Source of the DNA: Nitrospirota bacterium
Lineage (GTDB): Bacteria; Nitrospirota; Thermodesulfovibrionia; Thermodesulfovibrionales; UBA9159
Length of the DNA: 64,000 bases
NCBI GenBank assembly: GCA_963699545.1
Contig: CAVOUE010000003.1
Coordinates: 736,001 to 800,000 of the forward strand
Reading direction: 5' to 3'
The notes under the pieces are model-generated. The model was not told the DNA's origin, searched no databases, and saw only the letters and a list, made by a program, of their open reading frames with translations. Shown in pieces: positions 21,301 to 24,565 of this stretch. The position numbers and the translations under genes were made by a program. How positions within the stretch are numbered: the stretch's first letter is position 1; every line of letters begins with the position of its first letter.

Positions 21301-21939
21301 ATGGCCAAAATTCACGAAATAACGGTATGGACGCGAGGGGTGCTCATGGACAAGGAAGGCCGTGATATTGCAAGCGCTTTCGGTGATGCGGTTGCAATGG
21401 AAGGCAAACACGTCCAGGTATTCGACAACTATGAAGACCTGCCGGACCGCGTGCTGGTCACTACCCGGAAATATGTCAGGGTCAGCGACGAAGAGATCGA
21501 GCACAAGTATGTATACACCAATGACCATCCTGAAGTGGTTGTTGTTGCCGAACCTACCATAGTCAAAGGGATCAATGTGCTGAGGGGCATGCAGGAAGGC
21601 GGTCTTTTGCTCATCAATACCAACCGCCCGATCGATTACATGCTCAAGTTCATTCCCAACGCTGATCTGCTCGGCGCCATTGCCACGGTGGACGCGGACG
21701 GAATATCCGGAGTGCGGACAGTTGACTTCTCGGGGTCTGAGGGCGGCGTTGACTCTGTTGGAGTCGGCGCCGGCATCGCGGCCCCCATCGTCGGCGCAAT
21801 GGCAAGGGTCACTGGCATGGCAAAGAAGGAGAATCTTGCCAAGATCGTCAAGGATGTGGCAGGAATGGAAAGGGGATACAACGAGGTGAAACTGCAGAAG
21901 TTCCGCAAGGCCCGCGCCGAGTACTCATGGGGCGGGTAG
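21301..21939 (+). CDS. Oxalate oxidoreductase-like 2-oxoacid:ferredoxin oxidoreductase, gamma (domain III) subunit; alternative start at 21295
   Basis: EITVWTRGVLMDKEGRDI, NYEDLPDR, SGSEGG and GAGIAAPIVGA closely resemble the N-terminal part of the Moorella OOR gamma/delta subunit. Confidence 0.85.
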   Translation: MAKIHEITVWTRGVLMDKEGRDIASAFGDAVAMEGKHVQVFDNYEDLPDRVLVTTRKYVRVSDEEIEHKYVYTNDHPEVVVVAEPTIVKGINVLRGMQEGGLLLINTNRPIDYMLKFIPNADLLGAIATVDADGISGVRTVDFSGSEGGVDSVGVGAGIAAPIVGAMARVTGMAKKENLAKIVKDVAGMERGYNEVKLQKFRKARAEYSWGG

Positions 21940-21983
21940 GAAACAGCAGAGAGCGTAAACAAAAAGGATACAAGGAGGATACT

Positions 21984-22337
21984 ATGTCCAAGAAGCTTCC
22001 AGAATTCGGGACGATCAATGTCCCACACGACAGGTCAGTACCCTTCGGGGCGGTCACACCGGCCCCGGTACACCAGCAGGATCTTTTCATGACCTCGAAC
22101 TGGCGGATCGTCCGGCCTGTTATCGATGATGAAAAGTGCACACGCTGTCTCACCTGCTACATCGCGTGTCCCGATTCGTGCTGGTCATACAATGTAAAAG
22201 AAGACGTCATGGAATGGAACGAAAGCTTCTGCAAGGGCTGCCAGATCTGCATCAAACAGTGCCCTTCCGATGCACTGAGCGCAGTTGCTGAACTTGATTT
22301 TGAGGACGGTGTGGTCCGTCTCGAAAAACCCTTTTAG
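21984..22337 (+). CDS. Oxalate oxidoreductase-like delta subunit (2x[4Fe-4S] ferredoxin domain)
   Basis: Own RBS (AGGAGG); TSNWRIVRPVID; CTRCLTCYIACP and CKGCQICIKQCP; ELDFED. Confidence 0.88.
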   Translation: MSKKLPEFGTINVPHDRSVPFGAVTPAPVHQQDLFMTSNWRIVRPVIDDEKCTRCLTCYIACPDSCWSYNVKEDVMEWNESFCKGCQICIKQCPSDALSAVAELDFEDGVVRLEKPF

Positions 22338-22355
22338 GGAGGAGGAGAAAATACT

Positions 22356-23543
22356 ATGGCTCACGAAAAGATGTTAACCGGCTGCTCTGCAGCAGCCCAG
22401 GCTCTGAAGCTTGCGGAAGTGGAAGTGATCTGCTCCTATCCGATCCGCCCTTATACGGCGATCATGATGGAGCTTGCCAAGATGGTCGCCAATGGCGAGC
22501 TGGACGCGGAATTCGTGCACGGTGAAGGTGAGCATGCACAGCTGTCCGTGGTGTTGGGCGCCTCTGCCTGTGGTGCGCGGGCCGTAACAGGAAGTGCAGG
22601 GGTGGGAGTCACCTATGCCTTTGAATTATACAGTCCTGTGGCAGGGGGCCGTTATCCCCTCCAGATGACCATCGCCGACCGTACGCTCGATCCTCCCGGT
22701 GATTTCGGTTCCGAGCATACCGATGCGATGTCCACCCGGGACCAGGGTTGGATCCTCGGCTGGGCCTCCAGTCCCCAGGAGGTATTTGATAACACACTCA
22801 TGGGCTACCGCATCGGGGAGGATCCCCGTATCATGCTCCCCCAGATGACCTGTCAGGACGGGTATTTCATATCCCATATCCCGGACAAGGTGAAACTCGC
22901 GGACCTGAAACAGGTTAAGGAGTTCCTGCCCCCTTACAGCGCTCCCCATCCTCTCAGCACGACATGCCCCGTGTCCCATGGTCCACAGATCAGACCGGAC
23001 CAGGGAGCACCTATGGATGCCCAGAGAGCGGCGACCTTCCTTGAACTGCCAAAGGTCATAAAAGAGGCAACGGAGGATTTCAACCGTATCTTCGGACGGA
23101 ACTATGCCCCGTTCCTCGAAAAGTACAAGCTCGAAGACGCTGAGATAGCGTTCTTCATTCAGGGCGCCCATGCCAACACCTGCAGGAGGGCGGTAGATGC
23201 ACTCCGCAAAAAGGGCGTGAAGGCAGGTATGGCACGTCCCCGCTGGGTCCGTCCATGGCCTACCCGGGAGATCGCAGAGGCCCTGGGGCATGTCAAGGCT
23301 GTCGGAAGTATCGAGACCAGCACATCCTACGGAGGGGCAATGAGAGGTGGCAACCTGATCCATGAGCTCCGCGCCTCCCTGTATGACCTGGACGAGAGAC
23401 CCCTTACGACATCTTTCATGGCCGGTCTCGGTGGTGAAACTATATGGCCCGAGGATTTCGAGTTCATGGCAAAGGTCCTCTCGCAGATGATCAAGGAGAA
23501 GAGGACCAGGAAGTACGTGTACTGGATAGGCTTCGAAGAATAA
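22356..23543 (+). CDS. oorA: Oxalate oxidoreductase alpha subunit
   Basis: 395 aa; YPIRP (R31), GEGEHAQ, DR109TLDPPGD116FG and GPQ211I are the oxalate-binding signature of Moorella thermoacetica OOR. Confidence 0.88.
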   Translation: MAHEKMLTGCSAAAQALKLAEVEVICSYPIRPYTAIMMELAKMVANGELDAEFVHGEGEHAQLSVVLGASACGARAVTGSAGVGVTYAFELYSPVAGGRYPLQMTIADRTLDPPGDFGSEHTDAMSTRDQGWILGWASSPQEVFDNTLMGYRIGEDPRIMLPQMTCQDGYFISHIPDKVKLADLKQVKEFLPPYSAPHPLSTTCPVSHGPQIRPDQGAPMDAQRAATFLELPKVIKEATEDFNRIFGRNYAPFLEKYKLEDAEIAFFIQGAHANTCRRAVDALRKKGVKAGMARPRWVRPWPTREIAEALGHVKAVGSIETSTSYGGAMRGGNLIHELRASLYDLDERPLTTSFMAGLGGETIWPEDFEFMAKVLSQMIKEKRTRKYVYWIGFEE

Positions 23544-23572
23544 AACTCAATTGATGACACGGAGGATAATGA

Positions 23573-24565
23573 ATGAAAGCGTTTGACTATAAGTTCCAGC
23601 ACTTTGAGCCGATAAAATCATTTAAGGCTGCGCCAATCGAAGAAATGTACGTTCCCGGGCACCGCACCTGTGCCGGGTGCGGCCCTGCACTGAACTACCG
23701 CCTTGTGGCAAAGGCCGCGGGCAGGGACACCATATTCGTCGGACCTACAGGCTGCATGTATGTCGCCAATTCGAGCTATCTCTGTACCCCCTATGCTGTG
23801 TCCTGGATACATGCCCAGATCACCAATGGCGGCGCAGTGGCATCAGGCATCGAGGCAGCTTATAAGGTGCTGGCGCGCAAGGGCAAATATAACGGGCCGT
23901 TTCCGAATATTATAGTCATGGCGGGTGACGGCGGTACGGTTGATATCGGCCTCCAGGCTGCTTCAGCAATGATGTATCGCGGACACAAGGTCCTGTTCAT
24001 CTGCTATGACAACGAGTCGTATGCCAACACGGGCATCCAGACATCTCCCACAACACCCTATGGAGCGAATACCACTTTCACACCGCCTGGCAAGATGATA
24101 CCGGAAGGCAAGACTCTGTTCCCCAAAGATCCGCCTCAGCTCTTTATCGGCGGGCACCCGCTGCTGAAGTACGCAGCGACCACTTCGATCGCTAATCCCC
24201 TTGACCTGATGAACAAGGTGAGAAAGGCCCTCAGCTATGAAGGCCCGACCTTCATCCATATGCTTACCCCCTGCCCCAAAGGCTGGAAGTTCGACGAGAA
24301 GCTGACCATGGAAATGGGTAAGCTGGCGGTTGAGACAGGCATGTGGACCATGTACGAGTGGGAAAACGGTCAATACAAGTATTCCCACATTCCCAAGACG
24401 TACAAGCCGGTGAGCGAATACATGAAGCACCAGGGCCGCTTCTCGCATCTCAAGGAGGAACACATTGCAAAGATGCAGGCCTTTGTGGACGAAAAGATCC
24501 GGAAGGTCAAGGCTGCTGCAAAACCGGTGGAGGCACCTGTCCCTACCCCAAAGAAAAAAGGGTGA
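23573..24565 (+). CDS. oorB: Oxalate oxidoreductase beta subunit (ThDP-binding, proximal [4Fe-4S])
   Basis: [31 protein letters not shown]...[12 protein letters not shown] and PCPKGW. Confidence 0.88.

Follow-up and report, generated by a model that had tools for sequence, protein, structure and literature searches.

A predicted four-subunit oxalate oxidoreductase and its candidate Cdc48-type partner in a probable Nitrospirota sulfate reducer

The window considered here is a 64,000-nucleotide stretch of DNA from a Nitrospirota bacterium (contig CAVOUE010000003.1, positions 736,001 to 800,000), within which four plus-strand open reading frames (ORFs) at 21301-24565 encode, in that order, the gamma, delta, alpha and beta subunits of a 2-oxoacid oxidoreductase. 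Judged by its sequence, the enzyme is an oxalate oxidoreductase (OOR), a member of an already curated family in a four-subunit form. The original prediction had proposed an OOR in preference to a pyruvate:ferredoxin oxidoreductase (PFOR), and this is borne out by sequence, hidden Markov models, fold, tree, motifs and neighbourhood. The four genes are laid out as follows:

21301..21939, plus strand: OOR gamma subunit (domain III), 212 amino acids (aa), with the Glu147 loop and without a GxGGxG loop; matches 5c4i_B 12-208 and NF045790
21984..22337, plus strand: OOR delta subunit (domain V, two [4Fe-4S]), 117 aa, a 2x[4Fe-4S] ferredoxin; matches 5c4i_B 226-315
22356..23543, plus strand: OOR alpha subunit (domains I-II), 395 aa, with R31, R109, D116, F117 and Q211
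23573..24565, plus strand: OOR beta subunit (domain VI), 330 aa, with GDGG...N152, the proximal cluster ligands C33/C36/C61/C234 and an Ala/Pro-rich tail

The best Protein Data Bank (PDB) match of all four subunits is the OOR of Moorella thermoacetica (PDB 5C4I/5EXD/5EXE; EC 1.2.7.10; NCBIfam NF045790-2), which outscores the best PFOR-type chain for alpha (481 against 195 bits, a difference on account of which the likeness to OOR is not ascribed to chance), beta (502 against 261), gamma (199 against 40, for PorC) and delta (93 against 60). A structural model of alpha (pLDDT 77.6) searched with Foldseek returned 5c4i_A at 55% identity and a TM score of 0.92 and the PFOR 9bt4 at 28% identity and 0.90; it is the identity that discriminates between OOR and PFOR here, and not the TM score. 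Alpha lies above the NCBIfam OOR cut-off (NF045791, 558.5 bits against 500) and gamma above that of the OOR delta model (NF045790, 234.7 bits against 230), while the models for PFOR and for the ketoisovalerate (VOR) and ketoglutarate (KGOR) enzymes all fall far under their cut-offs with these subunits. Among 41 related genomes, OOR-type matches scored 557-573 bits and the next best 289. In a FastTree phylogeny of 73 sequences, a subset of 204, all 28 OOR-type sequences form one clade, apart from the PFORs, with a support of 1.0, so that comparison with the PFOR families upholds the proposed identity in the tree as well as in the scores. The accompanying expectation that automated annotation would name the enzyme pyruvate synthase holds only in part: some alpha relatives do carry the database label pyruvate ferredoxin oxidoreductase, but NCBIfam names alpha and gamma OOR, and several relatives are entered as 'oxalate oxidoreductase subunit alpha'.

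In alpha, YPIRP occupies residues 28-32 (R31) and PPGDFG residues 113-118 (D116, F117), with R109 and Q211 completing the set, and all of them share their numbering with chain A of 5C4I in a gap-free alignment, by which the hand counts behind the original prediction (a 395-aa alpha with R31, R109, D116 and Q211) prove correct. The Glu that it had noticed in the gamma SGSEG loop is Glu147, which a hand count on the alignment equates with Glu154 of 5C4I chain B, and beta Asn152 likewise equates with Asn143 of the Moorella enzyme. R31, R109, F117 and Q211 are found in 121 of 121 close relatives and D116 in 120 of them; gamma E147 and beta N152 are invariant in 40 of 40 aligned rows. Equally invariant are the beta cluster ligands C33/C36/C61/C234, which accompany a thiamine pyrophosphate (TPP)/Mg motif of GDGG (118-121) followed by N152, and the eight Cys of delta, which would hold two [4Fe-4S] clusters and, with the beta ligands, make three. 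We take Gln211 and Phe117 to have roles in OOR as well, and the Glu154 loop to be the one called the 'plug loop'.

The same residues separate the two kinds of enzyme across genomes. Eighty genome loci gave 77 usable alphas (three were dropped for broken or over-long ORFs), every one of which carries [YF]PIRP and DPPGDFGSEHTD, whereas all 15 PFOR-like alphas have YPITP. In gamma, 73 of 74 OOR-type loci carry W[TA]RGV, where all 14 PFOR gammas show HGRGGQG, and 70 of the 74 have DFSG[ST]EGG, which none of the 14 possesses. The hallmarks of a four-subunit PFOR or VOR, namely YPITP and the gamma GxGGxG loop, which in PFOR has a role with CoA, are absent from the window enzyme. Not every residue is diagnostic by itself: PFORs carry Arg109 too, and a sister family of OOR has Arg31 without Asp116. 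According to an excerpt of PMC5020499, YPIRP is found in OOR alone, and Arg31 and Asp116 take part in a 'bait and switch' mechanism; Arg31, Asp116, Glu154 and Asn143 are listed as OOR residues in an excerpt of PMC12654022; and domain III is described as the CoA-binding domain, and OOR as the sole 2-oxoacid:ferredoxin oxidoreductase (OFOR) without a need for CoA, in excerpts of PMC13768988 and PMC12337175.

The likeness to the Moorella enzyme thus covers the domains, an alpha of 55% identity, R31/R109/D116/F117/Q211, the Glu loop, the TPP-motif Asn and the ligands of three [4Fe-4S] clusters. Apart from their hosts, Moorella in the one case and probably a Nitrospirota bacterium in the other, the two differ in that gamma and delta form a single 315-aa chain in Moorella but are encoded separately in the window and in all 76 related loci, and in the beta subunit, which has a longer Ala/Pro-rich tail than its Moorella counterpart, a tail that PFOR betas do not have. 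An assembly error as the source of the gamma/delta split was considered and ruled out by the stop codon, by a ribosome site of delta's own and by the separation in all 76 loci. No fused longer form of gamma was found among the proteins of at least 372 aa searched, a range that excludes a 315-aa fusion.

Homology shows the machinery for a TPP- and Fe-S-dependent, CoA-free oxidation of oxalate, and oxalate itself is very probably the substrate. The enzyme would be a CoA-independent oxalate:ferredoxin oxidoreductase built as a dimer of gamma-delta-alpha-beta protomers. Oxalate, probably entering through the transporter TctCBA, would be held by alpha Arg31 and Arg109 together with beta Asn152 and split on TPP into two molecules of CO2, a reaction in which both the switch loop with Asp116 and the Glu147 loop of gamma would take part; the two electrons would pass through the three [4Fe-4S] clusters to ferredoxin. 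From there they might enter sulfate respiration (Dsr) or the Wood-Ljungdahl pathway, a sink that we infer. The genome contains dsrA above the cut-off, genes for carbon monoxide dehydrogenase (CODH) and acetyl-CoA synthase (ACS), and a separate single-chain PFOR, and the host is a probable Nitrospirota sulfate reducer; no oxalyl-CoA decarboxylase (oxc) scored above the cut-off in the genome.

The OOR genes lie in an operon whose order is promoter, palindrome, rubredoxin, cdc48, gntR, the four OOR genes and tctCBA, and we consider it highly probable that the whole represents a CoA-independent OOR in a GntR-repressed operon with a probable Cdc48-type remodeller. The remaining features are these:

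18055..18083, plus strand: sigma70-type promoter TTGACA-17-TATGAT, 11/12 consensus matches
18095..18107, no strand: FadR/GntR-type operator palindrome ATGGTCAGACCAT, TGGT-N3-ACCA, positionally conserved
18201..18359, plus strand: rubredoxin, 52 aa, accessory and lineage-restricted; NF045768, 94.7 bits, cut-off 90
18374..20512, plus strand: Cdc48/VAT-type double-AAA+ ATPase, candidate OOR remodelling factor from its VAT match, linkage, clade and complex prediction
20514..21223, plus strand: putative GntR/FadR (FCD) repressor, split ORF; the halves match LldR/PdhR/NanR-like models
21264..21280, no strand: another operator-like palindrome, GACCGGT-CTT-ACCGGTC, ahead of gamma; 4 of 74 loci, close relatives without exception, have it at this position
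24773..27864, plus strand: tctCBA, tripartite tricarboxylate transporter (TTT), probable oxalate importer; Pfam TctC, TctB, TctA

The product of 18374-20512 finds its best PDB match in VAT (5g4f, 644 bits), scores 802.3 against a cut-off of 802.65 with TIGR01243, and consists of an N domain and two AAA modules with the pore-loop aromatics present. It resembles VAT of Thermoplasma acidophilum and Cdc48-p97 (PDB 5g4f) in its N-D1-D2 layout, Walker A and B motifs, aromatic pore loops and arginine-finger regions. Unlike them, it is bacterial, operon-encoded and a predicted binder of a metabolic enzyme, and its variable C-terminus has no end resembling the HbYX motif; a search of the genome for proteasome-fold genes found one only.

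The ATPase gene accompanies OOR with considerable regularity. Among the 61 OOR loci whose upstream sequence extends for 4.3 kb or more, 59 encode a Cdc48, its position being changed in three, and a general Cdc48 DNA motif occurs in 62 of 80 OOR loci as against one of 80 sister-family loci (37 of which have at least 4.3 kb upstream); the ATPase gene of that lone locus is the first of an additional operon, which is a true OOR operon. The linked Cdc48s, of which 24 of the 53 available were used, fall 24 of 24 into one clade with a support of 1.0 in a tree whose outgroups are Cdc48s of the gas-vesicle type and of plasmids. A second phylum sample has Cdc48 adjacent in four of five OOR genomes, the fifth being the centre of the sample, chosen for lacking Cdc48; the 31 of 301 genomes with Cdc48s in that sample comprise the four OOR-adjacent cases, one next to a partial alpha, and 26 that are uncharacterised. 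The pairing was not found in the literature searched, a search that did not extend to the primary OOR papers and their supplements, which possibly name neighbouring genes.

The use of any bacterial Cdc48 as a marker of OOR was tried and ruled out, as six of eight Cdc48s in the phylum sample are in non-OOR genomes and the one scanned sits in a gas-vesicle cluster. A separate bacterial Cdc48 group was also seen (loci L101-L106 and L114), two of whose members, L101 and L114, belong to gas-vesicle clusters with GvpL/F and Hsp20; bacterial Cdc48s therefore seem to be recruited operon by operon.

A physical association was modelled with gamma, delta, beta and the Cdc48 N-domain (residues 5-190), each supplied as a 40-row alignment and alpha left out. 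The complex scored 0.76, compared with 0.00 for the best control; in the calibration, 116 of 157 solved pairs attained the score mark, as against 2 of 215 mismatched ones. The runs agreed in at least 86% of contacts, and the partner pLDDT was at least 81. The predicted interface comprises gamma 133-139, 180, 184-188 and 190, beta 241 and parts of 281-298 on the OOR side, and 40-44, 96, 98, 121, 127-128, 142-145, 161 and 163-165 on the N-domain side; gamma 133-139 immediately precedes the Glu147 loop, and the N-domain residues are presumably equivalent to the cofactor-binding cleft of p97. No OFOR-Cdc48 entry appeared among the molecule names in the PDB searches, none of which was aimed at such an entry. 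The model suggests that Cdc48 probably binds OOR through its N-domain.

Several roles can be envisioned for such a partner, and the most likely is that of a dedicated OOR reactivase or assembly factor. With its N-domain on OOR, the Cdc48-type ATPase would probably remodel the enzyme. It is plausible to assume that an OOR that dispenses with CoA cannot discharge acyl-TPP adducts, and an unfoldase gripping domain III beside the active-site lid could then reopen blocked sites; a role in assembly would fit as well. The title of a 2017 paper by Pierce reportedly speaks of suicide inactivation by pyruvate. The specific proposal, which we advance tentatively, is that OOR has its own activase: a Cdc48 clade that binds, through its N-domain, where gamma and beta meet beside the Glu loop, pulls domain III or the beta tail with ATP, and either frees dead-end TPP adducts (for example, with pyruvate) or loads TPP or clusters. 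Reactivation taken by itself is a credible role that falls somewhat short of probable. The Rubisco activases, as described in an excerpt of PMC5437159, offer a possible parallel, being AAA+ ATPases whose genes accompany that of a single enzyme susceptible to dead-end inhibition, although they belong to another AAA+ clade and serve another client, and the analogy is our own.

The explanation that competes best with an activase, and which we regard as possible though on balance doubtful, is that the enzyme is an OOR and Cdc48 a co-regulated passenger with a general task in protein quality control, not acting on OOR. Some OOR genomes do without Cdc48, other bacterial Cdc48s occur in gas-vesicle clusters, and linkage could be inherited with a transferred cassette. 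Speaking against a passenger are the retention of Cdc48 in 59 of 61 loci, three of them with rearranged order, the membership of all 24 linked copies in one clade, the lack of Cdc48 in sister-family loci save the one that heads a second true OOR operon, and a complex prediction that passes against its controls.

An OOR with a Cdc48-type remodeller must also be weighed against a number of observations that tell against it. For the enzyme, beta remains under its cut-off (564.7 bits with NF045792, cut-off 590; the PorB model gives 322.7), all 121 close relatives have Ser at alpha residue 119, where Moorella OOR has Glu, the only solved OOR structure among the PDB matches is that of Moorella, and this protein was left out of the tree, its placement coming from pairwise scores (481 and 512 bits to two OOR-clade members, 356 to the sister family). 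For the ATPase, the D1 Walker B (IDEID) is intact, and that of D2 reads FDDID, with Asp for Glu, a substitution that occurs in three of the 53 linked copies, the other 50 having DE, and in four of 120 relatives. Two of the 61 OOR loci with flanking sequence have no Cdc48. Of five OOR genomes picked for having no local copy, four had none at E<=1e-100, one of them a 3.4 Mb chromosome, and OOR can therefore stand without Cdc48; none was found either in one OOR genome from the phylum sample, whose OOR contig is 2.3 kb long. As to the complex, the calibration applies only roughly to a job with four chains, no alpha and custom alignments, and the predicted gamma contact 184-190 differs among subclades.

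The neighbouring transporter bears on the substrate. The tctCBA slot follows directly after beta, and 19 of the 62 flanked loci have a TTT downstream of beta; in five of five non-TTT loci tested, the gene directly after beta encodes an OxlT-like (oxalate/formate-antiporter-like) member of the major facilitator superfamily, above the cut-off in three. No OxlT-like gene was detected at E<=1e-20 in the genome of the window, which is 87% complete. We think it fairly likely that the TTT carries oxalate. A second alternative supposes a CoA-independent enzyme of the OOR family that in the cell acts on a different small 2-oxoacid, glyoxylate for instance: the window enzyme is 45% divergent from the sole characterised one, has Ser119 and not Glu, and adjoins a TTT of putative specificity, and the Moorella OOR accepts a few other 2-oxoacids. 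We consider this unlikely, given the OxlT-like neighbours in relatives and the retention of all of Arg31, Asp116, Glu154 and Asn143, catalytic according to excerpts of PMC5020499 and PMC12654022. An ordinary oxidoreductase of the PorCDAB type, with four subunits, a dependence on CoA and pyruvate or ketoisovalerate as its substrate, as in Methanosarcina acetivorans (PDB 9BT4), would share the four separate subunits, the gamma-delta-alpha-beta gene order, the fold (TM 0.90) and the PFOR label of some relatives, but is highly improbable in view of the 28% identity, Arg31 in place of the Thr of YPITP, a missing GxGGxG loop, a gamma insertion with the Glu loop, PFOR/VOR/KGOR models far below cut-off, a tree position apart from the PFORs and the separate PFOR of the genome.

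The nearest alphas, at 93-96% identity, come from metagenome-assembled genomes (MAGs) of Nitrospirae/Thermodesulfovibrionales, so that the host probably belongs to this order, and the OOR clade extends to Nitrospirota, deltaproteobacterial, NC10, betaproteobacterial and acidobacterial MAGs, if patchily: 5 of 41 related genomes, 3 of 301 in a phylum sample and 5 of 301 in a second. On plasmids no close OOR was found, the best of 43 records being 33-36% identical. OOR is structurally known from one acetogen, and the loci gathered here form a motif-defined clade across several phyla; from its occurrence in diverse MAGs it follows that anaerobic oxalate oxidation is encoded more widely than one cultured example suggests. 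A gut-microbiome survey omitted OOR for lack of information, according to an excerpt of PMC8062136. In the host of the window, oxalate oxidation could couple to sulfate reduction. If OOR does have an activase, a bacterial Cdc48 would have a first defined client in metabolism, and a thiamine enzyme would have a repair system of the Rubisco-activase kind. The proposed partnership gives an orphan bacterial unfoldase a testable job, with predicted interface residues named, and may matter for OOR expression aimed at CO2 chemistry.

Regulation can be read from the region upstream of cdc48. The promoter at 18055-18083 is the best site within 17800-28200, and since the scan total of six sites equals the shuffle mean, its support comes from position and quality alone. 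Of 58 related loci, 20 have TGGT-N3-ACCA in the 450 bp preceding cdc48, where 0.019 occurrences would be expected per 450 bp; over the whole window, GGTCNNACC occurs 13 times against a mean of 8.1, which is not above chance, so that positional conservation alone counts. A further perfect GGTCAGACC palindrome core at 63671-63679 of the window resembles the cdc48 operator. Rubredoxin stands between operator and cdc48 in 2 of 58 related loci, close relatives only, and gntR is found in 65 of 68 OOR loci. From this arrangement the operon would be repressed by GntR.

The gntR gene of the window is split by one base missing near 20914 and is a single ORF in close relatives. That the split might be biologically special was ruled out, since it is a one-base deletion and the ACS, CODH and PFOR genes of the assembly are also broken (C4:198822-201838; C6:361464-365013). 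The assembly is prone to frameshifts, as a patatin-like gene at 13789-16043 of the window is apparently broken into several ORFs; with several genes frameshifted, gntR included, assembly errors are indicated. Two dsrAB-like pairs were also observed (C3:398736-400920 and C4:38439-40554), of which one scores above the cut-off for dsrA and the other is divergent, at 317 bits.

The sister family of OOR (P0136, P0137, P0152, P0178 and P0219; loci L119-L198) keeps Arg31 and has Asp116 replaced (D[DQ]PG[ANS]F), and is possibly a second CoA-independent 2-oxoacid oxidoreductase. In the two of its loci that were read (L142:4965-10980 and L122:4962-9286), gamma and delta are fused into about 400 aa, the GxGGxG loop is absent and a GntR gene is present; L142 also has an oxalate/formate antiporter above the cut-off, and at L122:4962-15224 the sister-family operon and a true cdc48-OOR operon stand in tandem with one GntR each. 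In two betaproteobacterial loci (L077:10771-12942 and L080:11226-13499), the OOR genes are separated from cdc48 by a further 2-oxoacid oxidoreductase, one with alpha and beta fused. Downstream of tctA, the window encodes a cation-transporting P-type ATPase, which might conceivably be linked to calcium from calcium oxalate, and a Usp protein (28068-31321); the same ATPase follows at L001 and L055.

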